DNA of 29,537 nt from a virus (taxonomy: Duplodnaviria; Caudoviricetes). This document shows, one piece after another, positions 321 through 18,700 of this stretch (position 1 is its first letter; every line of letters begins with the position of its first letter). The notes beneath the pieces are model-generated. The model saw only the letters and a list, made by a program, of their open reading frames with translations. It did no database searches and was not told the origin of the DNA. The stretch lies in IMG/VR virus record IMGVR_UViG_3300020045_007296, positions 1 through 29,537 of that record. One strand, written 5' to 3'. The position numbers and the translations under genes were made by a program.

Positions 321-692
321 TTACTTTTTAGCAGGAAATTTATCTTTAACCATGTCCGAAACAAATTCCTGAATGATAATAAATATTGAAGCCAGCTTTT
401 TACTGATAAGGCCAATTAAGAACCCGGCCAATGCATTGTTTTCCGGATCAATCCATTTTTGAGAAAACCTGATTGACAGAATGATTAATAAAAAGCTACT
501 GACTAAGCCTTTTATCTCATCACTCAGGAAGTACGACCAACTAAATTTAATCGGGCTGCTTATGCTGTTTGGGTCCCGTTTGGTAGTACCTATGAGAAAC
601 ATTGTAAACGCCGTTAGGCAGGCAATAAAAAGTATTGCTGAAAACTGTACACCCGAAAGTGTACCGAGTAATATTGACCAAAATTCTTTCAT
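321..692 (-). CDS. Holin-like small membrane protein (~3 TM)
   Basis: Track ORF 321..749; the likely start is ATG 692 (MKEFWSILLG...), which avoids overlap with the upstream gene. Hydrophobic segments, charged C-terminus (KDKFPAKK), position before the lipoprotein. Confidence 0.6.
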   Translation of the reverse strand: MKEFWSILLGTLSGVQFSAILFIACLTAFTMFLIGTTKRDPNSISSPIKFSWSYFLSDEIKGLVSSFLLIILSIRFSQKWIDPENNALAGFLIGLISKKLASIFIIIQEFVSDMVKDKFPAKK

Positions 693-703
693 AATTTTAT
701 ATT

Positions 704-1132
704 TTAAACTGCTTTTAAATTGCTTTCTTTTTTGCCGTATATGAACCAAATGATTATCACTGCATCGGCAACTGCATTGAAAAAATATGTTTCTATTGTT
801 GCGGTATAGTTACAGATGAACGAAAGGAAATCCATAATATGATATTCAACTCCCAGCGCACAAATGAAAAACCAAAACCGGGAATACCTTTTTAAAACCA
901 TTGCCAGCACAAGCCAAACAATTATCCATAAATTCAGGTCAAATAAATTCTTAAACCACCAGGCAATCGTTATTTTTTCGTGACAAGAAGGAAACAGGAA
1001 AAGGTTAACGTAAGTGGTTAAGGCCGGTGGCCATAAAGTCCACATGATGGACGGCACTAATGTAAGTGCATAAGCTAACGCAATTACGCCAGCCAGTATC
1101 CTGTCTCTTCTATCAAATTTTATTTCCCACAT
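704..1132 (-). CDS. Multi-pass (4-5 TM) membrane protein of unknown function
   Basis: 142 aa, Trp/Phe-rich hydrophobic helices. Its ATG immediately follows the TAA of the polyproline peptide ORF (TAAATG). Confidence 0.75.
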   Translation of the reverse strand: MWEIKFDRRDRILAGVIALAYALTLVPSIMWTLWPPALTTYVNLFLFPSCHEKITIAWWFKNLFDLNLWIIVWLVLAMVLKRYSRFWFFICALGVEYHIMDFLSFICNYTATIETYFFNAVADAVIIIWFIYGKKESNLKAV

Positions 1133-1252
1133 TTAAACACCTCTTGGTTTAATAGGAGGGTTTACCGGCGGAATTGGTGATTCTTCCTCCGGTGATGTTG
1201 TTGGAGGTGGTGGTGGATCATCAACCAGTTTTACTTTTTTTTCTTTTGCCAT
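1133..1252 (-). CDS. 39-aa proline-rich peptide MAKEKKVKLVDDPPPPPTTSPEEESPIPPVNPPIKPRGV
   Basis: Hand-translated, below the track cutoff. A-rich context (TTTAAAT-ATG), ATG GCA AAA GAA start, and the stop abuts the next ATG. Confidence 0.65.
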   Translation of the reverse strand: MAKEKKVKLVDDPPPPPTTSPEEESPIPPVNPPIKPRGV

Positions 1253-1394
1253 ATTTAAATTTTAATATTTTACAGCGTTTAAAAACCGTTTTATAATTCT
1301 GGGCAATCTTAAAAAGCGCATATAGTGATAGCCCGAAAATTAGCGACCGTAAAGCCTTTATTGCTACGGTCATTGCATAGGTAATAAGATCCAT
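1221..1394 (-). CDS. 57-aa single-TM protein with basic tail
   Basis: Hand-translated: MDLITYAMTVAIKALRSLIFGLSLYALFKIAQNYKTVFKRCKILKFKYGKRKKSKTG. The ATG directly follows the TGA of the PAS gene, and the ORF fills the gap. Confidence 0.5.
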   Translation of the reverse strand: MDLITYAMTVAIKALRSLIFGLSLYALFKIAQNYKTVFKRCKILKFKYGKRKKSKTG

Positions 1395-1931
1395 TCATAA
1401 TTTCTTTTTGTCGAATATTTGCCCTATAATTTCAATCACTTCGCCCTTTTCATTTCTTATTGGCTCCATCCTGCACACTGCGTCTACTATTACCCCGGTT
1501 ATAATATGCTTAATCCTAATGTCTTTATTGTAGCTGGCAGGATGCTTAATCGCTTCTTCTACAATCTTTTCTATCCGTACCGCATCCTCATCCGGGATAG
1601 CCACCATGAACCGCATTCCCAATACACTTTGCAGATCGTTAAAGCCTGTCATTTCAAAGAAAGCCGGGTTTACAATATTGAATTCCATCTTTTCATTAAG
1701 CCTGAAAATAGGGTTCTTGTAAACTCTCAATACCGCATGTTGTACATTTTCAGATATTACAGCCTTAGATTTAAGCTCATCAATTTCTTTTTTTTGCTTT
1801 TCGTATTCCGCTGGCATATTGTACATTTTCTTTGCCCATTCAAAAGCTGGTTTTCTGTACTTTACTACAATCCACCCAACAACACCGGAAATTGCCCCCT
1901 TTGGTATAATGGTAGACCAATCAATAGCCAT
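1395..1931 (-). CDS. Membrane-anchored PAS-domain protein without output domain
   Basis: N-terminal hydrophobic segment (IIPKGAISGVVGWIVV), short coiled coil, then PAS core IFRLNEKMEFNIVNPAFFEMTGF...VLG...IPDED and PAC-like end PIRNEKGEVIEIIGQIFD. Confidence 0.85.
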   Translation of the reverse strand: MAIDWSTIIPKGAISGVVGWIVVKYRKPAFEWAKKMYNMPAEYEKQKKEIDELKSKAVISENVQHAVLRVYKNPIFRLNEKMEFNIVNPAFFEMTGFNDLQSVLGMRFMVAIPDEDAVRIEKIVEEAIKHPASYNKDIRIKHIITGVIVDAVCRMEPIRNEKGEVIEIIGQIFDKKKL

Positions 1932-2130
1932 ATATTAACTCTTTAAGCCATGATTGGAAAGCCTTTGTCCACTCTGCCACCTTGTTTGATAATAACCCGG
2001 CTATTACTGTTGTGATTATTGCCACAAAAGGAAACGCCCACGGGTTAAACATCCAGTCAGGAACGTTAAAAAAAACGGTACTGATAAATGAGACGGCTGC
2101 TGTTCCTGCGCTTATATCCGAAAAACTCAT
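1921..2130 (-). CDS. Small 2-TM membrane protein (holin/antiholin-like)
   Basis: 69 aa, two hydrophobic stretches, overlaps both neighbours, lysis-region position. Confidence 0.55.
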   Translation of the reverse strand: MSFSDISAGTAAVSFISTVFFNVPDWMFNPWAFPFVAIITTVIAGLLSNKVAEWTKAFQSWLKELIYGY

Positions 2131-2353
2131 CTTTCTTTTTTTTTAAATCTTTAATAAATTGGTTTATAAAATCTACCACCCCGTTACCAATACCGAAAAA
2201 TACCCCATTTGAAAAGTAGGCCATGTTATAAAGTAGCATTGCTTTCACAATATCAATCGGCTCCATGTCTTTGAAATCAACTTTAAAAGCAGACATGAAT
2301 ATTCCAAGCGCCAGGCAAATGAAAAATTTCCGTATGGTTTTATCTTTTGTCAA
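2066..2353 (-). CDS. Small membrane protein (holin-like)
   Basis: 95 aa, TTG start directly after the upstream TAA, ~2 hydrophobic segments and a Lys-rich C-terminal part. Confidence 0.55.
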   Translation of the reverse strand: MTKDKTIRKFFICLALGIFMSAFKVDFKDMEPIDIVKAMLLYNMAYFSNGVFFGIGNGVVDFINQFIKDLKKKKDEFFGYKRRNSSRLIYQYRFF

Positions 2354-4384
2354 TTAAGGAATTATTTTATACCCAAATATTTTATGTGTTTGGCCTACAC
2401 TAATAGTTCCATTTGCATAAAAAAGCATTGATGAAAAAGCGGGTATGTAGGTGCTGTTATTTCTAACGTTCCCGAGTGCATCTTTTTTACTGTACCCGCT
2501 AAAACTATACAATGCCGGCGCTGCTGTTGTATTACTCTGGAATGTGTGCGCCTCAGTACTCAGGTTAACACTGATTGCTTCCTTCGCACTGAATGCCTTA
2601 AAGGTTGTAAGGTCCATCGGTACGCCGTCAATAAATGTTCCACCGGCTGTTGCGTGATACCAATAATGAAATGGTTTTGTTGCATCTGTTCGGTAATAAT
2701 TAGAATCCAGATGGTTAAATATTGCCCGGAAATCAGTTTGGATATCCACCGTTACAGGGTCATTCAGTGAGCCGTTCCAGTAAAATATATTGTTGATTGT
2801 GCCGTAAACGATATTGTGCGTGATCGTATCATTTCGCATTAAAGGAGCACCGGGGAAACGCTGTAATTTAAACCCGCTGGCTGCATTATATATAACGTTT
2901 CCGCTAAACCTGCAGTTTGATATTTCATTTGCGAAAACCCCGCCGCCGGGAATGTTTACGATTGTATTATTTATTGCCTTTATATACTTACTTGCCCCAT
3001 CCCAATACAGCCCATGACAACTACCTTCATCTGCTGCATGGGCTGGCACACCGTAACCGGTGTTTATTCCGTCCGTTACTATATTACCGTCAACAAGGCG
3101 GTTTGTTTTTGTCACGTCTGCATAAGAATAAATACCCCCGCAATCCCCTTTTATCATCCCAAACTTTGTAACCCAATTATTTTTTATCAGTATATCATTC
3201 CCGTTGAATTTGATCCCATTGAAAGCTACTGAATCCACCCGGTTACCCTGAACTGTTGCCCCGTAATCGCTTCCTACTGAAATAGCATTATCCATATCAT
3301 CTGATGACCGTCCCATGCCTGCAAATAAGCCGATTTTGCTGACTGTGTTATTGAGTATAGTAGTGGTGCCGGTATTCATGTTTAACGCACTGATTCCGTC
3401 TGAAAGTGAGTTTGTGACTAAATTATTTTCAACCAAAAGGTTTGATATGAACCAAAAAAAGGAAGTTCGTTTATTATTATTCAGTTCGCAATTCTTCAGT
3501 GTTATATTGCTCCCGTCCTGGCTCCAAATTGCTACCTGGTTAGCGCCTTCAATCTTTACATTTTGGATGGTAATCCCACTTCGCGCTGTGTAACCGGTTC
3601 CGCCGCCTCCCAGCATGACCGGGTAATTAAGATTTGAATACTGGATAACTTTCGTGTTTGGATTTACTGCTCCAAAGTAAATAGATAGTCTTTTTGTAGC
3701 CTTATCAATAAACCATTCCCCGTATTGATCGAGTGTGCGAATGTCATCCTGAATAAAGTAACCATAATTTACGTTCCCAAGGTGGGGGGATGGGTTATCG
3801 TAAATGATTGTATTACCTGAGTGTGAAGTAATGCGGCCTGTATCAATTACCCAATCCCATTTGCGAATTACAACCTGGGCCCCGGTCCAGTTTGGGGTTC
3901 CTGAAAGCTGATTGTCTGTTATGGAAGGAGTTGCGGCGGTTGATTCATAAGTCCGATAACCGCCGTTTGCGCTGTCTACGTTTGGCGTCCGGCCAATTCT
4001 TTGCAATTCACCGTCGATCGTTACAATTTGCAACTGGCCAACGGCTTCTGCTGCATCTGCATACCATATTCCACCCCCGGCATTTGTCCATCCTGTTAGT
4101 GTTTTTAACCCTGAAATTGTTGGCAGATTTCCGGTGCTATAAGCATCAATGCCTATGTCGTTCCTGTTAGGGATAAACGCCTCATTCCACACCTCCCCAC
4201 GTTTTAAATAAATGGTATGGGTGCCTACCGGATAGCTAAAAGTATTCGCTTTATTGATTGTTTTCCATGCTGCACCGGTTGAAGTGCCTGCGTTGCCATC
4301 ATTGCCACCGGTAAAGTCCACGTAGTAGTCTGTCGCCCCGGATGTGGATGAAATCAAAAGTAATATGGTGAGTAGCTTTATCAT
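2354..4384 (-). CDS. Secreted right-handed parallel beta-helix (pectin-lyase-like) protein, putative depolymerase/tailspike
   Basis: Signal peptide MIKLLTILLLISSTSGA|T, N-terminal YYVD..GNDGNAGTS..AWKTI motif, repeated Asn-ladder strands (ITIQNVKI, LVENNLV, TVQGNRV, IKNNWV, VDGNIV). Confidence 0.8.
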   Translation of the reverse strand: MIKLLTILLLISSTSGATDYYVDFTGGNDGNAGTSTGAAWKTINKANTFSYPVGTHTIYLKRGEVWNEAFIPNRNDIGIDAYSTGNLPTISGLKTLTGWTNAGGGIWYADAAEAVGQLQIVTIDGELQRIGRTPNVDSANGGYRTYESTAATPSITDNQLSGTPNWTGAQVVIRKWDWVIDTGRITSHSGNTIIYDNPSPHLGNVNYGYFIQDDIRTLDQYGEWFIDKATKRLSIYFGAVNPNTKVIQYSNLNYPVMLGGGGTGYTARSGITIQNVKIEGANQVAIWSQDGSNITLKNCELNNNKRTSFFWFISNLLVENNLVTNSLSDGISALNMNTGTTTILNNTVSKIGLFAGMGRSSDDMDNAISVGSDYGATVQGNRVDSVAFNGIKFNGNDILIKNNWVTKFGMIKGDCGGIYSYADVTKTNRLVDGNIVTDGINTGYGVPAHAADEGSCHGLYWDGASKYIKAINNTIVNIPGGGVFANEISNCRFSGNVIYNAASGFKLQRFPGAPLMRNDTITHNIVYGTINNIFYWNGSLNDPVTVDIQTDFRAIFNHLDSNYYRTDATKPFHYWYHATAGGTFIDGVPMDLTTFKAFSAKEAISVNLSTEAHTFQSNTTAAPALYSFSGYSKKDALGNVRNNSTYIPAFSSMLFYANGTISVGQTHKIFGYKIIP

Positions 4385-4689
4385 TTGATTAAAAAAGTTG
4401 AATCATTTACTTTAGTTATGTTTCCTTGCAGGTAAGAAACTTTCTGATTGCTCTTTACAAGAGACGGGATGCTTTCTCTTAATACCCGGATCGAATCACT
4501 TAATTGCTCAATCTTTTTATCCTTCTCTGCGTACAATACAACCAGCGTCACCATGGCCGTATTTATCTGAGAAATACTTGTCTGCATTGCGGTGTTCTTT
4601 GCCTTTAAATCTGCAATTTGTTGGGCGGTTGTTTGAGCTCCGCAATTGAATACAGCCAGTAAAAAAATGATAATTAAAATGTTTTTCAT
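4381..4689 (-). CDS. Small secreted coiled-coil protein
   Basis: Signal peptide MKNILIIIFLLAVFNCGA|Q, heptad-like QQIADLKAKNTAMQTSISQIN, ATGA overlaps with neighbours. Confidence 0.7.
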   Translation of the reverse strand: MKNILIIIFLLAVFNCGAQTTAQQIADLKAKNTAMQTSISQINTAMVTLVVLYAEKDKKIEQLSDSIRVLRESIPSLVKSNQKVSYLQGNITKVNDSTFLIK

Positions 4690-5105
4690 TGTATGTAAGT
4701 TTTAAACCCAAATGAGGCCCATGATATTTTGCAAAAATTAGCCGCAATAAATAACCTTCCATCGTTCAACCTGGTTCCGGCCTCAATCCGAAAAGCCGGG
4801 TGCCATTCTGTTATTTTTGCGATCTTATAATTATTTGCTTCATTGTAATCTGCTAAACTTTCAACCCGGTAATAGCCTACACCGATACTCGCTGTTAAAT
4901 GCTCATTGAGCGAATACCCGATTAATAAAGAACTTGTATTCGGCACGGTGGCACTCATTAAGGGCAAGCGATAATTAAACGTTACTTCGGCTTGTTTGGC
5001 CTTGTATCCAATTGCCCACCCGGCACCTTTTGTTGTGGCCTCCATTCCTAAGAATGCCTGGCCAAATGATGCGAACGGGAATAATATGAATACTAATAAT
5101 TTCAA
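4686..5105 (-). CDS. Small secreted beta-rich protein, possible outer-membrane beta-barrel
   Basis: Signal peptide MKLLVFILFPFASFG|Q, alternating amphipathic strands (LTASIGVGYY, FRIEAGTRL, LFIAANF), aromatic C-terminal strand SFGFKTYIQ. Confidence 0.6.
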   Translation of the reverse strand: MKLLVFILFPFASFGQAFLGMEATTKGAGWAIGYKAKQAEVTFNYRLPLMSATVPNTSSLLIGYSLNEHLTASIGVGYYRVESLADYNEANNYKIAKITEWHPAFRIEAGTRLNDGRLFIAANFCKISWASFGFKTYIQ

Positions 5106-5506
5106 TTCAATATTTTAAAGTAAATGAACAATGAAAGCGCAAAACAAAGCGCCTTAACTCCTACATGCTGCCAAAGTTTTAACCTTTGCAAAAAGTTATC
5201 AAACTTTGCATCGTCCTTGCCGTCCTCTGACCCGGTAAAGAACGGTTTTTCACGCCTGAGTAAGTTGTAAGCAATATCGAATACCGGCCACCAAAAACAA
5301 GCCATTGCAATAACTGACAACGGTAAAGCAAACACGAAATTGGCGGCTGAATTTTGAGCCGCCAAAATTGCAACAGGTACGCATACTATTCCCACAATAA
5401 TTATTTCAATCTTGTGATTTATTGCCACTTTCTTTTTCCATTGCCTTAAATCATACCACAACTTTGCAGCGAGTATGAGAAGAAATAAAATTGTTGCTAT
5501 TATCAT
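5102..5506 (-). CDS. Multi-TM membrane protein of unknown function
   Basis: 134 aa, about 4 hydrophobic segments, ATGA-coupled to the next gene. Confidence 0.7.
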   Translation of the reverse strand: MIIATILFLLILAAKLWYDLRQWKKKVAINHKIEIIIVGIVCVPVAILAAQNSAANFVFALPLSVIAMACFWWPVFDIAYNLLRREKPFFTGSEDGKDDAKFDNFLQRLKLWQHVGVKALCFALSLFIYFKILN

Positions 5507-5513
5507 ATTGTAA

Positions 5514-6980
5514 TTATTGCCAGTTTATTAAAAGTTGTACATCTCCTGCTACTACTGCTGTTGCATCTGTTACACCTGCTGCATTTGTGATTGCATAAGC
5601 TATACCAGTACCGAATGTTAACCCTACACCAAACGATAGCTCTTTACTTGAAGTTGCTGGTATAGCGATTACCAAAACCGGCACATCGGTTCCTACTGTT
5701 GGGGCACTTGCTTTGTTATAAATCCTAACATACTTTGTTGCTGCCGATGTATTCATTGCGCTTATTGAATATATCGTTCCGGCAGATGCCTTTGCAAATG
5801 CAGCATTGGTTGTTGCTGCACTGTTTACTGCGGTTGAGGTATTTCCATTAATATTTTTACCGGATAAATACGTAGGCCATGCACTGCCAATTGCTGCTGC
5901 TGTTCCCTGGTTAATAGTACCAGTTACTGTTGTAGCAGGAGTATTTAATACATTCACTCCTACTCCGTAATTTGCCCCGCTTTGTTCGCCACCTGCAATT
6001 AAAACTTTATTATTTGTAAATTCCTCTACAGAAAGAAACCCAATGGTAAAAGTTGTAGTGGTGGCCGGATTTGTTGTGCCGTTTAACACTCGTATAAAAA
6101 GGAATAAATTTTCATCTGCATCTGGTATGTTCTCTATTCTACTTCCTCTTGCAGTGAACTGCACTGCTGCGTTTGTTGCAACAAGAGCATCTGAATAACC
6201 AACCATGCTACCATCTGAAACAGTTTGCACCACATGGCCGGGTGATGCAGACGTGACAGTTGTTATTGTGGCGTCACCTGATGCCCATCCTTTCCTTTGT
6301 GCATCCACTAAAGCAGATGTAGCGGTTGTTCCTGTGTAAAGAACTCTGTGATAATTCCACCCCCAAATTGTTAAAGTTCCCGACCCTGACGCTGGCCATC
6401 CTGCTACGGTATAAGTAACTGTTTGTCCTGCTACACTTGCTATAGCAAATCTTCCGGGAATGCCTGATGCTCCTGCTATTACAGATAGGTACATAAACTG
6501 CCCAACGTTGGCAGATGTAAACGGATTGTTGGTAAAAGTAACGGTTACACTTGTTGCAGAGTTTATTGTATAAGATAACCCTTCCCCAATTAAATCAGCC
6601 AATTCATAACTAAAATTATTATTAGCTATACGCTGTGATAAAGTTGTTTTAAATCTTGCCGTAAATGCTCCGCTAAATGATTTTACACTTTTAAAAATAG
6701 TCTCACTATTTGCAGACGCCCCGGTTGTAACTATTAAATTACCTGATGCTTGTGATACTGCCATTCCACTACCTGTTTGCAAGGTGGTCATGAGCGGTGC
6801 AATTAACCCTGAACCTACCTCGCTAAAGCTACAACGCCATAGTGTTGCTGGGGCTTGCCTTACAATTTGCCCTTTAGCATTTACAGAAGGGTTTGTTGTA
6901 GATAAATTTGTACCATTATAAACTTGCGCTTGTGTTAAAAACGAAAGGCTAATTAGTATTACTGTTATTACTGTTTTCAT
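5514..6980 (-). CDS. Secreted Thr/Ala/Gly-rich beta-sandwich protein, putative virion appendage
   Basis: Likely start ATG 6980, 2 nt after the upstream stop: MKTVITVILISLSFLTQA|Q. Beta-strand-rich; the C-terminal module (..KASAGTIYSISAMNTSAATKYVRIYNKASAPTVG..) resembles modules of phage structural proteins. Confidence 0.7.
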   Translation of the reverse strand: MKTVITVILISLSFLTQAQVYNGTNLSTTNPSVNAKGQIVRQAPATLWRCSFSEVGSGLIAPLMTTLQTGSGMAVSQASGNLIVTTGASANSETIFKSVKSFSGAFTARFKTTLSQRIANNNFSYELADLIGEGLSYTINSATSVTVTFTNNPFTSANVGQFMYLSVIAGASGIPGRFAIASVAGQTVTYTVAGWPASGSGTLTIWGWNYHRVLYTGTTATSALVDAQRKGWASGDATITTVTSASPGHVVQTVSDGSMVGYSDALVATNAAVQFTARGSRIENIPDADENLFLFIRVLNGTTNPATTTTFTIGFLSVEEFTNNKVLIAGGEQSGANYGVGVNVLNTPATTVTGTINQGTAAAIGSAWPTYLSGKNINGNTSTAVNSAATTNAAFAKASAGTIYSISAMNTSAATKYVRIYNKASAPTVGTDVPVLVIAIPATSSKELSFGVGLTFGTGIAYAITNAAGVTDATAVVAGDVQLLINWQ

Positions 6981-6982
6981 AT

Positions 6983-9562
6983 TTAATTTATTACTGTCCA
7001 TTTGTTATTTAATCTAATTATCTGAGTAGAAACATTTGATAAGATTGTTGTAACGGTCGTTGTTTGATCGGCCAGGTAAACCGTTTCCCCGGAGAATGTC
7101 CACGCAAACCCTGTTTCGTTGTTAACGATTGTGATATAATTCCCGTTGGATGCCGTTGGCATTATAAAGTTTCTGCCTGTACTTAGTGTGGCCGCTGGCA
7201 AATAATTAACTGAGTTTGCAACTGCTGTCAAGTTTGCATTTGTGCCGGTTACATACGTTACCTTCTGATATAAATTACCCGATACATCCGTTAAGTCTCC
7301 ATTATTGGTTACGATCAATCGCTTGCTGCCATTTGTCCATATACTTGCCTCAGTACTACTTAGCTGAAAGGATTGTAGGTTTGTTGAAGGATCGGCAAAG
7401 TTTGATGCATATACATTGCCACTAAGCACGCCCAGGCCTCCCTGTATATTAATATTGCTTGCGGCACCTACTGAATTTAAAGACGAAATTGTTAAGCCAT
7501 CTGCACCGCCAAATTTTAATGTACCTTGGCCTGGGGTTTTTACTTCAAGTGCGTCTGTGGATGGGGTTACGTTTATGCCTACTTTATTTGCCGCATATTG
7601 AATTATACCATTACCAGTTGCGGTACCAACAAAAGCAGTTGTTGCAAGCTGAGTGCTATTGTCGCCCGCTATAGCTGTTGGCCCATAAACTTCCTCTTTA
7701 AAAATTGCATTGAATGCATTTGGGCTTGTAGAAATTAATCCTTTTGGTTTTAATTTGAAAGGCTGGTAATTGCCAATTGTATTGGCAACTATGCCTGTAA
7801 ATTTTGCAATACCAGTTGCATTCAGGTGTGTAGCATCTAAAAACACAGAAGCATCGATTCTTGGATCAAACTGTATGTCCTGGTCAACTACAAAATCATA
7901 TAATTCAGGATGATTTCTGATAGAATCATTGAGCGCTAACCTATAAGTTTCTTTTGGAGAGGTAAGTGTTGTAGAATGTATAATTGTAAAGGCGACAACC
8001 TTATACCCATCATTTCTGGACTGTCCCCATAAGTATTTTAAATTGGTAAAAACGCTGTCGGCTGTAATACCAGCCATAATATCATTGATACCAGCATAAA
8101 GGAAAAACCAGTAATCCTGCCCCTTTGCAGTAGGTTTTGCTGTGTGTGCCTCTGTGGCGTACTCTGTTTTCATTTGGGCGGTGGTTTCGCCCCCGACAGC
8201 GTAATTTTTTTGACTTGCCTTTGCAAAATAAGACAGCGAATCCGGTAGCAAATAAGGCCAATCATCCCCATCATTTGAATAGCTGTCACCCTCAACGATA
8301 TACCTTCTGTATTGAAAACTATCAACACTAAGCGCACCAACTACCCTTACCTCTGTATTGCCAATGCTGCCTATTTTTATTTGATTTGGTTTGTCATTAT
8401 CCTGGTTATTGCCTATAACAATGCTGTTGCTTCTATCTACATCTTTTGAAAGCGTAAATGAACCACTTCCGGCACCCGCTATTGTTGAAAGCGTTAAAGT
8501 GTTTGCAGATGCAATCGTAAACTGGTATATGGTTGCTGTTGTAAGCCCGGACAATGTTGTTCCTGAAATAACATCGTATTTTAAATTTACTTTTTGGCCT
8601 ATAGTTCCAAATCCGTGCGAAGTGATTGTAATTGTAGTACCGCTAACATCTGCCGATACAAATGATTTGACTGATCCAATTGTAAAAATATTACCGGCAT
8701 TGTTACCATAAGCTGAGCGATCTGTCCAGTTGTTGTTTTGCAAAACCAGGTAACCCAATCCGGATGAGTAAGGGCCAACATTGTTTTGAAGCACATAAGA
8801 TCCAAAACCATGACAGTTAATTCCGGTATTGTTTTGAAGTGCGTAATTGCCAAATCCGTTTGCAAAATTACCGGTGTTATTAAGCATTGTAAGGTAACCA
8901 AACCCATTTGAGTGCGACGCTGTATTATTAGCCAATACGCCATAACCGAGACCGGATGAAAAAGCCCCACTATTGTTTTGAAGTGCATAAGAGCCATACC
9001 CGTTTGCATAGGTAGCGGTATTGTTTTCTAAAGCGGATATTCCAAACCCGTTTGCATCACGGCCAGAGTTATTCCGTAAAGCATTTTCCCCGGCACCAAA
9101 ATTTGTTGCTGCTGAAAATGCACTTCCTGTCCAGTAGAACGGCTGGTCAGTTATCATATTCCTGCCTGCGATCTTTACAAACTTGCTTTGATTTTTTGCG
9201 GTGGTGGTTATCAGGTCAGGTGTAAAACTTGCCGCTGTTTGTAAGCTATCCCTTGTTTTTGTAAGCCCCCCTCTGCTTGCAAAACCGGTTGCATCAATTG
9301 AATCCGCTATGCCTAATTTAAGTGCCAATGCTGATAATCTTGCACGGTCATTTATTTCAGTTTGATAATTAGCTAACATAGTTGCTGTGTCTGACTTATT
9401 TAATTTACCTGAAATACTCGCTGTATTTGCGTTGATATCTGCCCGTAATGCTGTTGTGTCAACAGTAGTGCCGCCCCCGGCAAGTTTTACCAGCTTTACA
9501 ACCGGCTGAGCAGTTGCAGTTAATGAAAGAAAGATTGTAAGTATTGTTATGAGTTGTTTCAT
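6983..9562 (-). CDS. Tail-fibre-like protein with signal peptide, beta-solenoid repeats and SGNH/GDSL hydrolase domain
   Basis: Signal peptide ...LSLTATA|Q, 13-aa repeats (NGFGxxALxNNTG), SGNH blocks VEGDSY / AVGGET / AGIND / DATH, phage fibre motif PTAIAGDNSTQLATTAFV. Confidence 0.8.
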   Translation of the reverse strand: MKQLITILTIFLSLTATAQPVVKLVKLAGGGTTVDTTALRADINANTASISGKLNKSDTATMLANYQTEINDRARLSALALKLGIADSIDATGFASRGGLTKTRDSLQTAASFTPDLITTTAKNQSKFVKIAGRNMITDQPFYWTGSAFSAATNFGAGENALRNNSGRDANGFGISALENNTATYANGYGSYALQNNSGAFSSGLGYGVLANNTASHSNGFGYLTMLNNTGNFANGFGNYALQNNTGINCHGFGSYVLQNNVGPYSSGLGYLVLQNNNWTDRSAYGNNAGNIFTIGSVKSFVSADVSGTTITITSHGFGTIGQKVNLKYDVISGTTLSGLTTATIYQFTIASANTLTLSTIAGAGSGSFTLSKDVDRSNSIVIGNNQDNDKPNQIKIGSIGNTEVRVVGALSVDSFQYRRYIVEGDSYSNDGDDWPYLLPDSLSYFAKASQKNYAVGGETTAQMKTEYATEAHTAKPTAKGQDYWFFLYAGINDIMAGITADSVFTNLKYLWGQSRNDGYKVVAFTIIHSTTLTSPKETYRLALNDSIRNHPELYDFVVDQDIQFDPRIDASVFLDATHLNATGIAKFTGIVANTIGNYQPFKLKPKGLISTSPNAFNAIFKEEVYGPTAIAGDNSTQLATTAFVGTATGNGIIQYAANKVGINVTPSTDALEVKTPGQGTLKFGGADGLTISSLNSVGAASNINIQGGLGVLSGNVYASNFADPSTNLQSFQLSSTEASIWTNGSKRLIVTNNGDLTDVSGNLYQKVTYVTGTNANLTAVANSVNYLPAATLSTGRNFIMPTASNGNYITIVNNETGFAWTFSGETVYLADQTTTVTTILSNVSTQIIRLNNKWTVIN
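8690..9105 (-). repeat. Degenerate coding tandem repeat (~39-nt unit, 13 aa) in the fibre gene
   Basis: About 10 units of (N/S)G(F/Y/L)GxxxLxNNxx in the translation; boundaries approximate. Confidence 0.7.
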
Positions 9563-9564
9563 GC

Positions 9565-11376
9565 TTAGTTGATTGATCTTGAAAGTTCATAGAAATTAGT
9601 TCCGTCAAACTTTAGCGTTAAGGTTGTGCCGGTTGTTGTTGTAAGGTTACCAGCCAGTATTAAATTGCTGCCATCGGTTACAGTTAACGCCCCGTCAAAA
9701 ATTAAAGTAATTGTTGCCCCGGCAGTTAACACGCTCCCTGAAATGCTTGTAATGCCTGTTGTGCCTGTTACATGAAAGCTGTTGCCCGTTGCGGTTATGG
9801 TGGATGCACTGGCTACGTTTGTACCGTGATAAAGAGATGTTACGCCGTCTGATGTGGTTCGTATTTTAACTACTCCGTCACCTGAAGCTATTGCTATGTT
9901 ATTTGAAACATTTCCGATACTTATATTTGAGCCTAAAATGGTATTGCCTGAACCGCTTGTTATGCCATTACCAGAGGCAATGCCAATAACTGTATTGTAT
10001 GTTGTTGCTGAAGATGTTATATTAACTAATGATGAATCACCAATAGCAATGTTATAAGATGAATTTACAGCTTGCCATAATGCTTTTGAACCAATTGCAA
10101 CATTATTATGGCCAATGGTATTAAAGCTAAGCGATGCTGCCCCAAAGGAGTTATTATTATAACCTGTTGTATTCGATTTTAATGACTGAAATCCTGATGA
10201 AGTATTATAATACCCAGATAAATTATTATATAATGCTTCCTTCCCTAAGGCAGCATTTTCTTTCCCAATCGTATTTCTAAATAAAGAGAAAGCGCCAAAT
10301 GCCGAATTTCCTTCGCCTGTTGTATTGTATCTTAATGATGAAGTTCCAGCTCCTACATTTGCACTTCCTGTAGTATTAGAATACATACTTTCTCCGCCAA
10401 GTGCTACATTGCTTGCGCCAGTTGTGTTTGAATTAAGCGATATATACCCAAGTGCCATGTTATAGACCCCAGTCATAGTAGAGTTTCCGGAATTACCAAA
10501 AAAGTAATTAAAAGAAGATGGGTTAGCAGTAATTACATTTACTCCGTTGTATTTATAAGCTGAATCCTGTGATACATTTATATTCCCAACCACGTCAATT
10601 TTTTCAGTAGGTAATGATTTATTGAATCCTACATTATTTGCATAGTTTAATCCTCCGGTAACATTTACCCATTGCGAAAATTTATTAACACTACCCGGCC
10701 CAATTGAATCTGTATTTAATGCGGGGAAATTGCCGTATCCATTAAGATACTTTGCTGTCGTATTTGGGTATGTAATGCCTGATCCGCCACTACCGCCACC
10801 GCCAATAAGCGAAACCCGCCAAATGGTTTTAAGGCTTATATAGTCTACATAAGAATTATCAACTGCTGTATCTATGCGATAGATGGCGTTGGAATCTACG
10901 CCACCGGTAGAATTAATTACCGTGGTGTCTCCATCATAAGAAAAAACTGTATTATCCCCGGCCTTTAAATAAGCAAGTGCAACTGGAAAAGAATCAACCC
11001 CAATACCTCCGGCATAATTAATATATCTTGTTGAATCGAAGTTGTAGCGGGTTGAATCGTATCCTGAGCCTCCGCCAGACGGGGCAACCCAATTATACCC
11101 GTTCCATGTATATATTTTACCTGAACTATAAGCTATAGCACCTGAATCTTTTACTGCTAATTGCGGCTTTGTTAATGGTATTGTAAAAGCATTTTTTACG
11201 CCAAATACACCATATTCTATGCGTCCTGATAGTGAAGTTTTAGTCCTTGTAGAATCATAAGGAGTTTGCGCACCTGCGCCAAGTGAAAGAAAGAAAAGAG
11301 CCGTTAAGATTGCGAGTGACAAATTTCTATTTTGTAAACTCTTAATCGAAAACAGCCCGTGAAAGGCTTTTTTCAT
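9565..11376 (-). CDS. Tail-fibre/adhesin-like protein with signal peptide and 14-aa NxAxG repeats
   Basis: Signal peptide ...LTALFFLSLGAGA|Q, repeats such as NVALGGESMYSNTTG / NSAFGAFSLFRNTIG / NVAIGSKAL, Gly linkers, fibre-like NVGFNKSLPTEKIDVVGNI. Confidence 0.75.
   Translation of the reverse strand: MKKAFHGLFSIKSLQNRNLSLAILTALFFLSLGAGAQTPYDSTRTKTSLSGRIEYGVFGVKNAFTIPLTKPQLAVKDSGAIAYSSGKIYTWNGYNWVAPSGGGSGYDSTRYNFDSTRYINYAGGIGVDSFPVALAYLKAGDNTVFSYDGDTTVINSTGGVDSNAIYRIDTAVDNSYVDYISLKTIWRVSLIGGGGSGGSGITYPNTTAKYLNGYGNFPALNTDSIGPGSVNKFSQWVNVTGGLNYANNVGFNKSLPTEKIDVVGNINVSQDSAYKYNGVNVITANPSSFNYFFGNSGNSTMTGVYNMALGYISLNSNTTGASNVALGGESMYSNTTGSANVGAGTSSLRYNTTGEGNSAFGAFSLFRNTIGKENAALGKEALYNNLSGYYNTSSGFQSLKSNTTGYNNNSFGAASLSFNTIGHNNVAIGSKALWQAVNSSYNIAIGDSSLVNITSSATTYNTVIGIASGNGITSGSGNTILGSNISIGNVSNNIAIASGDGVVKIRTTSDGVTSLYHGTNVASASTITATGNSFHVTGTTGITSISGSVLTAGATITLIFDGALTVTDGSNLILAGNLTTTTGTTLTLKFDGTNFYELSRSIN
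9930..10500 (-). repeat. Degenerate coding tandem repeat (~42-nt unit, 14 aa) in the fibre gene
   Basis: About 12 units of NxxxGxxxLxxNTxG in the translation; boundaries approximate. Confidence 0.7.
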
Positions 11377-11422: not shown

Positions 11423-12574
11423 TTATACTTTTATTAGTACATAATCTAAAGTAATATCTTGTACACCTGTCGAAAATTCCTGCCCTGCGAACTTAAACGA
11501 GTTGGGTTGGTAGTCGTAAAGCGACCACCCGCAGTTATTATCATTGTATTTACTCGCATTTGTTCCCTTAAAGGTTGCTAATACTATATATGCATAAGCA
11601 AGACCAAATCCATGCGTAATTGTTACAAAGGTATCTGCACCCGCTGCGCTTATATCCCCGATATGAAAAGAGCCATTGCCAACGATATCCCCGGCAACCG
11701 GTGCGGAAATGCCTGCTTTAATTCCATTTATTGTTAAATTCCAGTGAACGCCATCCCAGGTCAAGCAAACAGTTGACCCAAAAGGAATATCTAATTCACT
11801 TTTTGGAGTTGCCCCGTAAAGTAAAGTCCCATTAAGGAATTTAATTTTTGGTGCAGTAGCCTCATTGCCAAGCTGCGTAAAATGATGGTTGTAGCCAATT
11901 GGAACAGGGGTTGCAAGCGGAAAGGTATAATGTCCGGTTCCTGATAATCTGATTAACTTTCTAAGGTGGCCGGGAATGTAATCTATGTCGGCTACAACGT
12001 CAATAAACCCGCCAAAACCTTTGCCCACTACAGAATCATTCACATAAGTAGTAATAACAGACGGCTTTTTAAATATTCTCCATCGTTGATTCGCCTCGAA
12101 TACTTGTCCTGAAATGAATAATGAAGTGTAAGAAACTGAGTAATCAACATTAGGGTGCAAAAATCCCTGTCCCTCAACAAAAACTGAAAGATCAAAAGCA
12201 GTTGAACCAATAAAAGCCGGGTTAGTAATTGTATTCGTTCCTTCCAACGGTGTTAAACTTTCGCCATCGCCTATTTTAAAATAAATCGGATCAAATACGG
12301 TAACCACATCAATAGTAGGCTGTACATCATACCAATGCAAAAGGCTTCCGGATGCTGTGAATAACCTCACAACATGAACCACCATATCGCAACCGGTAAA
12401 AGATATACTGTTTGGGACCTGATGGCCTGCTCCTACCGTTGGCGTTCCTGACCCATCTTTTTCTAATATGGTAAAGCTCTGAACCTCGGCATTTGGTGAA
12501 CTTGCTTCGTAAATTTTGGCCACCATGTTTTCATGGAGCGAAGGGTAAGGGCTTATGTGATAATTAATAACCAT
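11423..12574 (-). CDS. Minor tail / baseplate-associated protein
   Basis: 383 aa, beta-rich, no signal peptide, C-terminal fibre-like module (VTITHGFGLAYAYIVLAT); third gene after the tape measure. Confidence 0.65.
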   Translation of the reverse strand: MVINYHISPYPSLHENMVAKIYEASSPNAEVQSFTILEKDGSGTPTVGAGHQVPNSISFTGCDMVVHVVRLFTASGSLLHWYDVQPTIDVVTVFDPIYFKIGDGESLTPLEGTNTITNPAFIGSTAFDLSVFVEGQGFLHPNVDYSVSYTSLFISGQVFEANQRWRIFKKPSVITTYVNDSVVGKGFGGFIDVVADIDYIPGHLRKLIRLSGTGHYTFPLATPVPIGYNHHFTQLGNEATAPKIKFLNGTLLYGATPKSELDIPFGSTVCLTWDGVHWNLTINGIKAGISAPVAGDIVGNGSFHIGDISAAGADTFVTITHGFGLAYAYIVLATFKGTNASKYNDNNCGWSLYDYQPNSFKFAGQEFSTGVQDITLDYVLIKV

Positions 12575-13522
12575 TTAAATAAGTGTTTTATCTGTGATAT
12601 GTACGATTTCGACTGGCTCCAAACTGAATAAATCTGTACCGATATTATAAGCGGTAACAATTCCAGGTGTTAACGGATTACCATCGTCGTTAAACTGAAT
12701 ACCGCTTTGATTAACTGCAGGCTGAACAGTTGTTGCCCATCCAAATTGCGGGAATCCTTTAACCCGGGTTGCTTCCCATTTTTCGCCAACCGGTTTTACA
12801 TAGGCTAAACCCGGATCGTTTAGGTCACGCCTGATGTTTACATAGTCACATGAAAAAATATGATTCAGGATTTTTACTATGTAATTTGGTACGCCGGGAG
12901 CTTCTCCAACAAATAATTTAAATGTATCGTAAGGTGTAGCACTTAAAATAGTGGTGTTAAAAATTTGGTCAACGTAGTCCTTACCTTCCATTTCAGGCTG
13001 ATAGTCAAGTAATGCGGACTCACAACGAAAATTAAACGTTACGCCCGTATTAAAATAAACGCCCAATATGTTTTTTGAATTCCGATAAGAAAATAGCATT
13101 GTGTTCTTGTGAAAAGCGGATACATGGATTTTTTCACTTACAAATTTTGCTGAGTAGCTTAATAGATTTGCTTCAAAATACAGGTGGTAAAATCCGGCTG
13201 TTATTGCGTCGAAATTTATATTGCACTCAAATAAATTTACTCCCAATGTTCCGCTGGTTCCTACTAATGTCCATGGGAAAGTTGCACCGATTACTTCTTT
13301 TCCTGCGCTGGTATAAATCTTTATTGGAGAAGGTGCCACAGTTGAAACTACCTGCAATGGTGTAGCGTCGCCGTATTGCCATTTTTGGGCATAACAAACT
13401 TTATACTGAAATACTTTTATCTGATTCACTGCAAAGTCATCATCTAAGTGAATTCCGGGTGTAGCGGTGTTCTTATACCACTTAATCGGGTTCATGAAAG
13501 CTATATCTGTAAAGTTTGCCAT
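12575..13522 (-). CDS. Minor tail protein
   Basis: 315 aa, second gene after the tape measure, TAATG-coupled. Confidence 0.65.
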   Translation of the reverse strand: MANFTDIAFMNPIKWYKNTATPGIHLDDDFAVNQIKVFQYKVCYAQKWQYGDATPLQVVSTVAPSPIKIYTSAGKEVIGATFPWTLVGTSGTLGVNLFECNINFDAITAGFYHLYFEANLLSYSAKFVSEKIHVSAFHKNTMLFSYRNSKNILGVYFNTGVTFNFRCESALLDYQPEMEGKDYVDQIFNTTILSATPYDTFKLFVGEAPGVPNYIVKILNHIFSCDYVNIRRDLNDPGLAYVKPVGEKWEATRVKGFPQFGWATTVQPAVNQSGIQFNDDGNPLTPGIVTAYNIGTDLFSLEPVEIVHITDKTLI

Positions 13523-15798
13523 TATATTAATTTGGTTAAATCGTTATCGGGTGCCAGTAATACCTTCCACCCCTGGCTGTCATCTGTTGCAGGGGCAAAT
13601 CCGCCATCCCATAGGTAAGCCGTTATTCTTAACCCCAGCCAGTAAAAAGCGATCTTGCTGTATGGGTTCGTTCTCATTATTGCAGGCAAGTCGATATCGA
13701 CTTTCGTTTTAAAAGATGCGTAGTAAGGAAGAAATAATTTTGCCGGCAAATTAAAAATTGGAATATCAGAATTTTCGGTTGTTGTTACTCCTCCCAGCGT
13801 CCGGGATAGTACACTATTCTTTTCGCCTGTCTGAAAAACTATTTTACCAATCCCTTTTGTATCTAAAACTGAATTGATATAAGCCCCGTTACCATCAAAA
13901 AAATGTGTAGGTGATAATTCTACATTAAAAGCCTGGTCCGGGAAAATAAGCCCTGTTATGCTTGAATAAGCAGGCCTATTTAGCTTGTAGTACTCTGCAT
14001 TGTAAACCGTGATACTTGTATTGTAAGAACCTGGCGTAATAACTCCGGTTATTCCTACATAAGAATAACCAACAATCAGAAAAGATATTGATAAAACGGT
14101 ATGCGTAACGCCTGAAATTGTTATTACCTGTCCGATATTCAGCAAAGTTTCTGTTGTCGGTATCTTCAAGAAGTAATTACCGGTATTTAATTCAGCAGTA
14201 AACCCCCCATTGTAAACACTGTATAAGGCACCTTTTGAAACATTTGCCTGAAAAGTATCATTATCAGACGAGCTATCTGTCGTATCCTTTCCGAATAATT
14301 TCAACCGGGTTAACTCAATCCCAAACATATCTGCTCTGTAAGGGCATATAAGGTCCAATTCTTTAACTACACGGGTTATTGGTGTGCTATATTGTTGAGT
14401 TACATTAAATTCATCCTTTCCGTTTACATTGTCATAGGTTTGATTCTGATAGCCGACCTTGATAGTGTTAATTACCAAGTCTTCAGCTAAAAATATTTCA
14501 CACTCGCTTACTTCGCCCAATTCAAAAGCAATATCATTCCTGAAAAAATATTCATGCTTTTCTATTATCAATTGATCGTTCTCAATTCCCATCCCTACAC
14601 CCCATCGCTGGCAGGCTTTAAAGAAATCTGAAAGGCTTGTTTTAAAAACTGACGGAGCACCATATTTTCGGATGGCCTGGCCTGATGTTAATAGCTGTGT
14701 TTCATCGAGCGAATCTAAAAAAGATGATTTAAACCCATATTTTCCGCCGGTTAATTTTTCGGTTATCTTTTCGCCTAATCTTTTCCATGTGAGGCATTCG
14801 CAAAGAGTTGTGTCAAAAGTTACATCATATTCCAGTTTAATAGACCCTGATTCAATTGTGTACCAAGTTGACCCGGTGCTTAAAAAAGGCGTCTCTGCCC
14901 TTACGTAAAGTTTATCTCCGTCGGTCATTGGAACAGTTATCGTTATATTTTGATCAATTAACTGTCCAGCTAAATAGCTTCCACTTATTATATTGTAGTT
15001 TGTAGTTGTTCCTGATAGTGACCTTTTTTGCATCCTGACCGTAACAAAACAGTCCAACTTAACAGCAACACGAATATTTATAACGAATGTTTGAGGTATA
15101 GTTTTGCTTATTACATTTGAAATCCATTTTTCATTTGGGAATGTATCAATAAAGTCAAAAGGCGAATCCTGCACAGCTACACCCTGGCTTGTGCCTTCCT
15201 GTGAAATAATTCCTAATCCGACATACTGATTTGACCCCTGTATGTTTTGATCCTCAAATACATTCCATTCCACTTTATTCCTAAAAGGCAACCCGTCCAA
15301 TGCTAAAATCTTTTTTTCTGCATCGTTATGGATATCAATTTCGTAGGTAGTAGCTTCATTTGATTTTAGGAGCTTGGTTAATCCGCCTTCCACCAACTGA
15401 ATATCAACACCATCAAGCGTTTGCTTGAACTTGCTAAAATCAAACTCCCCGGTGTACCAATTATAATAACGGTCAGGAAAATTGTTTTGATCGAGTTTTT
15501 GAATGGCTAAATAATAAACCGCTTCAATTCCTTTTTTCCACATGGCATCCCTTAAAATCAATGCTCCGTCTTTCACAAAATTTAACGGTATAGAGAAATC
15601 ACGAAACACCCCTAACCATTTATTATTTCGGGCATACTTAACCAGCGTTTCGTTCCATCCGTCGGGCGAATGCTTGAGGCTGGCACTTGATCCGTCCGTC
15701 TTTGTAGCACCTTCACCCGCTTCGACATGCCCCGAAACATTTTCGAATAGCGGCTTTTTATCGCTGTTTAATATAAAATATTTAAGAATCGGGTTCAT
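13522..15798 (-). CDS. Tail tip / hub-like protein
   Basis: 758 aa, directly downstream of the tape measure with a 1-nt overlap. Position and size are typical of a tail hub. Confidence 0.7.
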   Translation of the reverse strand: MNPILKYFILNSDKKPLFENVSGHVEAGEGATKTDGSSASLKHSPDGWNETLVKYARNNKWLGVFRDFSIPLNFVKDGALILRDAMWKKGIEAVYYLAIQKLDQNNFPDRYYNWYTGEFDFSKFKQTLDGVDIQLVEGGLTKLLKSNEATTYEIDIHNDAEKKILALDGLPFRNKVEWNVFEDQNIQGSNQYVGLGIISQEGTSQGVAVQDSPFDFIDTFPNEKWISNVISKTIPQTFVINIRVAVKLDCFVTVRMQKRSLSGTTTNYNIISGSYLAGQLIDQNITITVPMTDGDKLYVRAETPFLSTGSTWYTIESGSIKLEYDVTFDTTLCECLTWKRLGEKITEKLTGGKYGFKSSFLDSLDETQLLTSGQAIRKYGAPSVFKTSLSDFFKACQRWGVGMGIENDQLIIEKHEYFFRNDIAFELGEVSECEIFLAEDLVINTIKVGYQNQTYDNVNGKDEFNVTQQYSTPITRVVKELDLICPYRADMFGIELTRLKLFGKDTTDSSSDNDTFQANVSKGALYSVYNGGFTAELNTGNYFLKIPTTETLLNIGQVITISGVTHTVLSISFLIVGYSYVGITGVITPGSYNTSITVYNAEYYKLNRPAYSSITGLIFPDQAFNVELSPTHFFDGNGAYINSVLDTKGIGKIVFQTGEKNSVLSRTLGGVTTTENSDIPIFNLPAKLFLPYYASFKTKVDIDLPAIMRTNPYSKIAFYWLGLRITAYLWDGGFAPATDDSQGWKVLLAPDNDLTKLI

Positions 15799-18700
15799 TA
15801 ATTTTTAAAGTGTTGTTGATACCAGGCTGTTGTTTCTATTGCCCCGGTATTTTTAATTACAATTCTGCTTTTACGGTTTAAATCTTTCAACTCACCAAGC
15901 ATCTTACCCATTAAATGAGCATTTACGCCGTCAACTGTAATTGGCTGGTTGACATTCATTCCTGATAACCGCTGAAATCCTGTAGCCGCTAAAATATTGG
16001 CTGTTATGTCGGCAGGAAGAATCGTTTCTCCACCCATCAGATTTAAGAGCGACGGAACGCCTGGGGTTAAATATGGAGCCCCCTGTTTTGGAATTACTAG
16101 CTCACGCCCAATTTCACCACCAATGGCCGGGCCTTTTTTAGCGTCATTTGTACCGAGTGCGTATTTAGGCAAAGGTGTACTGATTGCCTTTGCCAGTTGT
16201 AAGGCCCCAATTGCCCCGGTAAGCGCAGCCAATCCGATGTTGGCAGGTGTATAAGGCTTCATACCCAATGCGGCCACAACGGCCTGCGCTGTGCTTGCTA
16301 TGATGCTTGCTATACTTGCCGCCTTTTCGAACTTTGCCCGTTCAACTGCAATGGCCCGTTTCCTTTTTTCAATCTGTTCAGTGTCAAATGCCGCCTGTTT
16401 TTCTACTAAGGCAACCGCTTTAACCCGTTCAACCTCGCTCAATCCGAGTTGGTTGATGTTGTTTATTTTACGTTTTGCTTCTTCATCGAGTACCCTTTGT
16501 TTTTCACCCAAGTCTTGCTCCTCACGTTTTAAATTATCGTCTAAAAACTGGAAAATCGTTGATTGCAATTCGGAATAAAGCTGCTTATAAAGCTCTTTTC
16601 TTTTTGCAGCCAGTGCTGCCTCTCTTGCCAGTTCATCAGCAAACTTTTTCTTTGAAATTTCTTCCTGCTCTTTTACATTTTTCTTTATTATTTCAAGTTG
16701 CAGATCGCCTAAAATCTTTGCTTGTGCCGCAGCTTTTGGCCCTGCTTCTTCTGTTAATTTAATCAGCCGGTCGTTTACCTCTTTTGCCAGGCGGATACGT
16801 TCATCATTAAATTTTGCTTCGACAACTAACCTTTCTTTTTCAGATTTACCCTTTTTCTCTTTTTCCTCACTACGATTAATTAGTGATAACCTTGCATTAT
16901 AAAAGTCAGATAATAGAATTAATCTGTTTGTAAACGAATCTTTATCATTTGCAAAATCTTCATTCAGTAAATCAATTTTTCTTTGCTGGTTAATTTTATA
17001 GATTTCAAATTCGGCATCAACATCTTCTTTTGCATATTTTGCCCGTGGTGATTTTGCGCCCCGTTCTTTACCGAGTAATAGATCAATCTCATCCTGTAAT
17101 TTTTTAATTTGAGCAACATTGGTTTTAATGTCTGCTTTACTCAATAAAGTTGGCTGTATCTTAGTTAGCTTTTCAATTTCATTTCTCAATTTCTGTATAA
17201 TGCCTAATTGTCCAGCGGCCCCAGCTCCATCAAAATTCGCTTTAAACTTATCTTTAAAAACAGATATAGAAGCATTGACTTTTAAACCAGCCTTTTTCAA
17301 TTCAGTATCAATGTTTTTTAAGGCCTGATCTATATCACTTTTAGGTATATCAAGATTAAACAAATCTGCTGTAAAATTTATCCTACCCAAAGAGGTTGAG
17401 TTGTCAAAAAATTTCCTTTGCTCCTCGCTAAGGTCGCCATAAGATGCTTTCCCGGTCTTTCCAAGTTCGACTAATGCTTGTCTTTGCGCTTGCAAGTTTG
17501 CCACGGCTTTGTTTGATTCTGCATTAACTGTTCCCGCTGCCTCTAGCTCTGCTTTCCTTTGCAGTGATCCAATATACGCATCCAGTATTTTGGTTCCCTC
17601 CGCTGTAGCTATATTTTCAAGCGTTAGTCCTTTTAGGTAGTTTGGGCTTATAGCAATAAGCTCTTTTAATGCCTCTTGTCTTGTAGACAAAGAGATATTG
17701 TTATCTCTTGCAACAGATGTCAAAGCCTCTACATTTGCCTTTTCTTTGCCATAAATTTCAACTGCTTTTTCATTCACCTCATTTAGCGCCCTTACCTTTT
17801 CCTTGCCATCACTTATAGACCTAAATAAATCAATAAAGCTTGATGCCAATGCAGATAATGGAGTTAACAATAATAATACTAATCCACCGAGCCCCATACC
17901 AGGAACAATATTGGCAATGTTCCTCATTACTGAAAATACGCTCTGAAACCCCCTTGTTAATTTCCCTGTTCCGCCTGCTGCAGATGACACCTCTTTTGAA
18001 ATATCATTAAGCGCCTTGGAGCCTGTTCCTACCTCTTTATTAAATGACTTAAATAAAGTGCTATTTGTTCCATATACTACCCCAATCTGTTTTGCGGCTT
18101 CTTTAAATGCAGACTGCTGTGTAGATGTAGATGTGAACTCTTTTCCTGTAGATGAAATTGCATTTTTCAGTGCCGTCTGCTTCATTGTTAATTCATCCAA
18201 TGTTTTACCAGAAGCACCGTTTGCTATTTTTGCATTTACGGAATCAAGTTCTTTATTTAGTGTTTTAAATGCCCCTGAAAATGCAGTTGGGTAATTACCA
18301 ATATTTATTTTTTGCTTTGATAGCTTATCGCTATTACTGTCTATTAATTCATTATTTCTATCAATTAGTGCATTCAGTTCGGCTATTTTTTCATTATCAT
18401 CTACATTCACCCTGCTAACCTGCCGCTTTAAAACAACATTTTGAGCTTGCGCCTCCCCGGTAGAATTAGGGGCATTTTTTGAAAACTCACTTAGTTTTGT
18501 TTGTTCTTTTATTTGTTTTGAAGTCTCAGAAATGCGGACTTTTAGTTTTTCTTGCTGCACCGCTGTTTCAAGTAACCTGTCTTTATATTCTTTTTGGTTT
18601 ATTATACCTTTCTTTAGCAATTCGGCATTATCCTTTTCCTCTGCTTTTACACTTGCCAAAGTATTTTGGTAACGGATTCGTGCCTGAATATTTTCTTCAA

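Follow-up and report, generated by a model that had tools for sequence, protein, structure and literature searches.

In textbook accounts, the assembly of tailed phages takes place entirely in the cytoplasm. Here we analyzed a window of 29,537 nt, i.e. the entire stretch of DNA under study (IMG/VR record IMGVR_UViG_3300020045_007296), which contains the late genes of an uncultured siphophage, located on the minus strand. Its head module contains a capsid-cement-like gene (22539-22943), and a block of seven genes downstream of the tail-tip genes (2354-11376) forms the fibre slot. The cement-like protein and the large slot proteins carry signal-peptide-like leaders and are candidates for export by the Sec pathway. 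Virion proteins are also routed through the host secretion machinery in filamentous phages, but their coat proteins remain in the inner membrane, extrusion of the particle requires no lysis, and there is neither a tail nor an HK97 head.

The cultured siphophage Pan5 (ON968456; PMC9837993) has the same gene order as the window, with a homologous hub (27%), a homologous gp7 and a homologous N-terminal region of gp18. It differs by another capsid type, a different fibre cargo and a polysaccharide lyase in the slot. Pan5 gp7, annotated as cement, is the homologue of the cement-like protein of the window (profile E-value 1.2e-20), and leaders followed by glutamine at position +1 (Gln+1) were observed on gp7, gp18 and gp19. 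The available passages of the Pan5 article and its supplement contain no mention of leaders that we could find (PMC9837993). Pan5 was published as a cyanophage of Pseudanabaena; its head-tail genes resemble those of the window group and its leaders end in Gln+1. The phage may actually infect a member of the Bacteroidota growing alongside in that culture.

Leaders with Gln+1 were also found on three consecutive proteins (gp85-87) of Cellulophaga phage phi18:3 (KC821620; Pachyviridae), which GenBank annotates as structural by tandem mass spectrometry (MS/MS); the ten other phi18:3 proteins checked (nine marked by MS/MS and one hypothetical) do not show such a leader with Gln+1. The MAT fibres of Bdellovibrio may resemble the slot proteins in layout: a signal peptide is followed by a conserved N-terminal domain (~130 aa) and by modules like those of phage fibres, as described in the accessible part of PMC10769870. 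They are, however, cellular adhesins, and 13 of 21 carry S74 chaperones, whereas none of the window proteins matched S74. The head fibres of crAss001 were considered as a precedent and set aside: they bind the capsid through residues 1-38 and 1-58, and the word "signal" is absent from the available text (PMC10172136).

Leaders in the window

Signal peptides were called with our own rule-based script combined with reading by eye. In related loci the script flagged 1 of 248 homologues of ten non-capsid core genes; among capsid homologues 8 of 61 were flagged, and seven of these eight belong to a subgroup whose N-terminus is extended by a hydrophobic stretch. The low rate in core genes shows that the leaders of the slot exceed what chance would give. 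An initial annotation of the window had proposed that six of the seven slot genes begin with signal peptides. All six have a basic n-region, a hydrophobic h-region and small residues at -3/-1, and the cleavage sites given are present (GAGA/Q, TATA/Q, LTQA/Q, ASFG/Q, NCGA/Q and TSGA/T, with cleavage at the slash). The seventh gene (5102-5506) indeed encodes a membrane protein with four hydrophobic segments. The capsid, tube, tape measure and hub proteins are leaderless as announced, and so are the portal, protease, adaptor, terminator and two tip proteins. Neither a sorting domain of the type IX secretion system (T9SS; Por_Secre_tail or type B) nor an autotransporter barrel gave a Pfam or NCBIfam match, in line with the same annotation.

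One further leader-bearing gene, the cement-like gene of the head module, had been missed. Because of this gene the secreted-leader feature is, as judged from sequence, not only real and conserved but stronger than first described. With it, Gln+1 is present in six of the seven leader-bearing genes of the window. There is no in-frame Met near the cleavage site in the cement-like or the four large proteins, and the mature cement-like, 603-, 859- and 488-aa proteins contain 0-1 Cys each. Disulfide-driven export was rejected, given the few cysteines in these proteins.

Signal peptidase I substrates of Bacteroidota typically have Gln at +1 (the Q-rule), according to the available part of PMC5837995. 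The host of the window phage is likely a member of the Bacteroidota, since six of seven leaders follow this rule and cultured relatives are found among Leeuwenhoekiella and Tenacibaculum phages.

The cement-like family

The gene at 22539-22943 (minus strand) encodes a cement/decoration-like jelly-roll protein of 134 aa with a leader (predicted cleavage FATA/Q). It lies two genes after the gene of the leaderless HK97-type major capsid protein (23262-24524, minus strand), with one small gene between, and ahead of the head-tail adaptor. A database search gave 41 matches among 101 candidates, window protein included, and Gln+1 is invariant in all 41 aligned sequences. Mean pairwise identity is 0.33 in the leader versus 0.60 in the mature part, and leader and Gln+1 are kept over about 35-70% identity. 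The script accepts 36 of the 41 leaders; in the other five proteins the annotated start codon falls within the hydrophobic stretch.

A scan of IMG/VR confirmed 104 relatives, of which 80 were kept. Profile matches carry a leader in 86 of 88 cases, the exceptions being a fused open reading frame (ORF) of 466 aa and a fragment of 63 aa. Dereplication, in which the locus whose best match was the fused ORF was dropped and near-identical copies were merged, left 40 relatives, all with a leader and Gln+1. In 32 of these 40, a recognised capsid gene precedes the cement-like gene by no more than 900 nt, a second capsid type included. In three of the other eight, a cement-like gene stands between the tail terminator and tube genes (L062 4482-4907, L104 6737-7147 and L111 3958-4383). 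A tandem two-domain cement with a single leader (about 255-275 aa) was seen in L057, L060, L061, L064, L092 and L094, and tandem forms or two adjacent leader-bearing cement-like genes are also present in L081-L085, L089 and L091.

The family is viral: its nearest Atlas clusters are composed of 91-100% viruses, and matches were obtained in 4 of 401 Bacteroidota genomes, one of which covers the N-terminal part, includes a leader and comes from a locus resembling a prophage. A tblastn search of cement proteins against cultured phages returned Pan5 itself only. A contig scan with the cement protein was dominated by the leader pattern and gave one weak locus, unconfirmed by the profile.

The structure model of the protein is a single jelly roll (predicted local distance difference test, pLDDT, 89.5), in the size range of jelly-roll cement proteins (about 110-140 aa). 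The family has an invariant D-T followed by Val, and in the model this site sits in a strand. Among the fold matches are the cement protein of BPP-1 (Z 10.2, root-mean-square deviation (rmsd) 2.6, 106 residues aligned), PirA (Z 10.6), a Carin1 capsid chain (Z 8.5) and many unrelated jelly rolls. The BPP-1 (PDB 3j4u chain H) and Carin1 (8cjz_B) chains are eight-stranded jelly rolls similar in size to the window protein, with at most 17% identity to it; they appear leaderless, since their residue 3-4 aligns to residue 22 of the window protein. Sequence searches of the PDB were uninformative, and matches in a viral structure library were mostly uncharacterised proteins. In BPP-1 the cement gene adjoins the capsid gene. 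A predicted complex of two copies each of capsid 124-420 and cement 20-134 scored 0.00, which counts neither way. Of all the observations, the cement-like gene speaks most strongly for the proposed secretion of virion parts.

Large proteins of the fibre slot

The seven slot genes are all on the minus strand, tightly spaced or overlapping. They had been described as fibre- and tailspike-like genes; four of the seven encode large proteins of fibre- or enzyme-like type, and the small ones were overcalled. The first, at 9565-11376 (minus), encodes a fibre-like protein of 603 aa with a long leader (GAGA) and N-x-A-x-G repeats. These repeats match virion structural and tail spike PHROGs as well as fibres from many phages in culture. 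Residues 1-140 of the protein are similar to Pan5 gp18 and to the product of the first slot gene of G001, a region thus common to three loci, and all five database homologues of residues 30-240 have leaders. The next gene (6983-9562, minus) encodes a mosaic protein of 859 aa with the TATA leader, repeats, an SGNH/GDSL esterase domain (residues 425-584) and a PTA motif. Both genes lie downstream of the hub and tip genes and contain fibre-type modules. As for the phage-fibre motifs announced by the initial annotation, PTA...QLATTAFV was found at residue 628 of the 859-aa protein, but the N-x-A-x-G repeats (N-x-[AG]-x-G occurs 8 times in the 603-aa protein and 3 times in that of 859 aa) are not phage-specific.

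The third large protein (488 aa; 5514-6980, minus; the ORF reaches 7001) has the LTQA leader. Its model (pLDDT 85) contains beta-sandwiches at 28-303 and 363-469 connected by a loose, flexible linker, and not the beta-helix of a tailspike. The family is large (1970 matches among 8000 candidates scored). Among the top 120 the script flagged six, of which five are real leaders by eye, window protein included. Since most homologues are leaderless, the leader was likely gained rather than inherited. A leaderless homologue in the cultured phage Mae-JY24 follows genes that we read as tail genes, all hypothetical in the record. The C-terminal ~110 aa (5514-5840, minus) form a separate beta-sandwich with short matches in Synechococcus phage S-SRP01 and Caulobacter phage KSC; this may be a capsid-docking domain, which would make the protein a head rather than a tail appendage.

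The last slot gene (2354-4384, minus) encodes a right-handed beta-helix protein of 676 aa with the TSGA/T leader, a relative of host secreted proteins that lacks their T9SS tail. It has matches in 4 of 301 Bacteroidota genomes, at ten places, including seven complete ORFs. A T9SS tail was present in three of these seven versus none of 23 leader-bearing phage proteins. This distribution of leaders and exit tags suggests two kinds of module side by side in the slot: those of phage origin, to which a leader was likely added, and those of host origin, from which an exit tag was likely removed.

Related loci

The fibre slot was delimited by eye in 21 loci, namely the window, Pan5 and 19 IMG/VR modules. 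Left outside this count were G003, G004 and G005 (no large slot gene in the available DNA), G011 and G012 (no slot recognised), G018, and the cultured phages Arctus_1 and JQ. Leaders are present on 31 of the 43 slot ORFs of at least 250 aa. At least one large slot protein has a leader in 16 of the 21 loci, and every one does in 13. In the five loci with a leaderless slot, a two-domain cement with a leader is still present; conversely, G022 gave no cement match although its fibres bear leaders, which indicates that the cement leader and the fibre leader are separable features. A viral scan with the window hub protein alone gave no match.

Two further observations were made in these loci. One 68-kb record (G015; L129 and L130) contains two head-tail modules that look complete, both equipped with a cement and fibres that bear leaders, and may represent two phages joined. 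Capsid ORFs with an N-terminal extension of 40-75 aa, which places one or two hydrophobic segments ahead of the normal start site, were seen in L002-L006/L039 (e.g. L005 9887-11272), L061 (7849-9306) and L100 (7301-8755), and capsid-sized ORFs of this kind in L036-L038, L049, L057 and L078. These possibly correspond to a membrane-tethered procapsid. The window capsid has no such extension.

Export, assembly at lysis and alternatives

We estimate at about 60% the probability that the cement-like protein and the four large slot proteins are exported by Sec, retained in the periplasm and attached to finished particles at lysis. The leader-bearing proteins would be expressed late and exported, then cleaved by signal peptidase I, with pyroglutamate forming at the new N-terminus as expected from the Q-rule. 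Having no outer-membrane exit tag, they would stay in the periplasm, where they would fold, possibly with O-glycosylation by the host and not driven by disulfides. When the inner membrane fails at lysis, the periplasmic parts would meet the finished particles; the cement would bind the expanded capsid and the first fibre would dock on the leaderless tail tip through the shared N-terminal region. Binding to finished particles in vitro is a known ability of decoration proteins and of P22 tailspikes. The wider proposal, a two-compartment particle in a widespread group of tailed phages, with a core made in the cytoplasm and with cement and fibres that are secreted, carry pyroglutamate, are possibly glycosylated by the host and are added at lysis, seems to us about an even bet.

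The initial annotation had proposed that the fibres are exported to the periplasm and join particles at lysis. For its first half, export in proteins that have no outer-membrane exit tag, both sequence and conservation provide good support, while virion membership is supported indirectly, by gene position, by the Pan5 "cement" homologue and by the MS/MS-annotated leader proteins of phi18:3. O-glycosylation has a weak and mixed hint in its favour: the cement family has the invariant D-T followed by Val, although in a strand of the model, and the leader-bearing slot proteins contain 158 sequons versus 94.2 expected and the leaderless ones 25 versus 20.7. No paper on Sec-exported cement or fibres of a tailed phage was found in the open full-text literature, a corpus from which subscription journals are mostly missing.

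Several observations weigh against this reading of export and attachment. The Pan5 "cement" label carries a footnote reading "cryo-electron microscopy or AlphaFold2" in the available part of PMC9837993. Phage phi18:3 belongs to another family, its gp85-87 have no detectable homology to window proteins, and MS/MS of phage preparations can include co-purifying proteins. The jelly-roll fold is not diagnostic of cement, because unrelated jelly rolls also score Z 8-10. The top fold match of the cement model (Z 11.8, rmsd 5.4) is XepA of PBSX (PDB 6i56), a phage jelly-roll protein which, in the accessible part of its description, is exported and absent from mature particles (PMC6834076); it differs from the window protein by its Gram-positive host, its two-domain pentamer and its location in the lysis cassette. 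Beta-helix and N-x-A-x-G repeats also occur in host secreted proteins; the 603-aa repeat region matches 30 of 301 Bacteroidota genomes, mostly in ordinary host proteins with leaders, and four of the seven genome-borne beta-helix homologues also lack a T9SS match. The leaderless tip protein could perform receptor binding alone. The fibre slot is leaderless in 5 of the 21 loci, as well as in Arctus_1 and JQ, where a leader-bearing cement-like gene after the capsid gene is also absent, and the fraction of leaders is biased upward, because most loci were found through the cement family. Finally, sequons are also in excess in the tube and capsid proteins (4 versus 1.5 expected each), and phi18:3 gp85-87 fall below expectation.

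Three other explanations were considered. In the main one, the exported late proteins collect in the periplasm but remain off the particle; lysis would set them free as depolymerases, esterases, lectins or decoys, with which the progeny could escape capsule or biofilm. XepA provides both the top fold match and a published precedent of export without packaging, the slot contains host-like enzymes (beta-helix, SGNH esterase, and the polysaccharide lyase of Pan5) and it abuts membrane and lysis genes. We nevertheless consider free release unlikely, given that 32 of 40 relatives keep the cement-like gene in its place behind the capsid gene, that all large slot proteins bear leaders in 13 of 21 loci, and that gp85-87 of phi18:3 are annotated as structural. 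The proteins could also be factors of lysogenic conversion or exclusion, i.e. surface adhesins or receptor blockers made by a prophage, a role best fitted by the small barrel-like and four-helix genes of the slot. Some members are temperate (G024 is classed as a provirus, and recombinase-like ORFs were seen by eye in G006 and G022), proteins combining a leader and repeats are common on host chromosomes, and the Bdellovibrio MAT fibres offer a cellular parallel. But the genes are co-oriented and overlap inside the late block, and matches to promoters (44 versus 42.8 in shuffled sequences) and terminators (15 versus 11.6) do not exceed the shuffles, with a sigma-70 model ill-suited to Bacteroidota. 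The proteins have no exit tag for reaching the surface, and the gene after the capsid gene would be left unexplained; this role appears improbable.

It is still harder to believe that the leaders merely persist from host genes once captured, or are leaky, with an unexported cytoplasmic fraction working on the particle. Some modules do have close leader-bearing host relatives; the cement family, however, is almost without host relatives and yet keeps leader and Gln+1, the leader of the 488-aa protein was likely gained, and there is no nearby internal start.

Other genes of the window

The gene order is terminase, portal, HK97-type capsid, adaptor, terminator, tube, tape measure, hub and two tip genes, followed by the seven-gene block and then by several membrane genes. 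The tail core at 12575-18989 (minus) comprises a tape measure of 1063 aa, a hub-like protein of 758 aa and a tip protein of 315 aa, all leaderless. The last gene ahead of the leader-bearing block (11423-12574, minus) encodes a leaderless tail-tip protein of 383 aa, a candidate for a receptor-binding or docking part made in the cytoplasm.

Three small genes of the slot likely encode envelope proteins and not virion parts. The barrel-like (4686-5105) and four-helix (5102-5506) genes are inserted inside the fibre slot. The latter (minus) encodes the membrane protein, of 134 aa, which is not an appendage. The gene at 4686-5105 (minus) encodes a leader-bearing protein of 139 aa that looks like a small beta-barrel of the outer membrane and is probably no appendage either: as a lead only, it has an Atlas score of 0.95 to OMP_b-brl (59% of members) and Opacity (41%) clusters, with 148-154 shared features, and no Pfam match was obtained when a Lom/Ail-like barrel was tested. 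The leader-bearing protein of 102 aa at 4381-4689 (minus), likely a coiled coil, has only weak coiled-coil matches; its Cys16 could be a lipoprotein site, and a spanin-like role is a guess. Homologues of these three genes were absent from the related loci examined.

Several small membrane genes occupy 321-2353 (minus), one with a weak match to a holin PHROG. The window, which ends at these genes, contains no endolysin. Among them, 1395-1931 (minus) encodes a protein that combines a hydrophobic stretch at its N-terminus with a PAS domain, a possible sensor tied to the timing of lysis.

Significance

If the export and late attachment proposed here are true, assembly would include a last step at lysis, in which secreted cement and fibres are added. 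Virions would gain access to periplasmic modifications (pyroglutamate, O-glycans), and phages would recruit secreted enzymes of their hosts as appendages by dropping the T9SS tail. Annotation rules that file signal-peptide genes as non-virion cargo would then misplace real virion parts. Pan5 and phi18:3 are cultured test cases, and the presence of a homologue in Pan5 makes the question directly testable.

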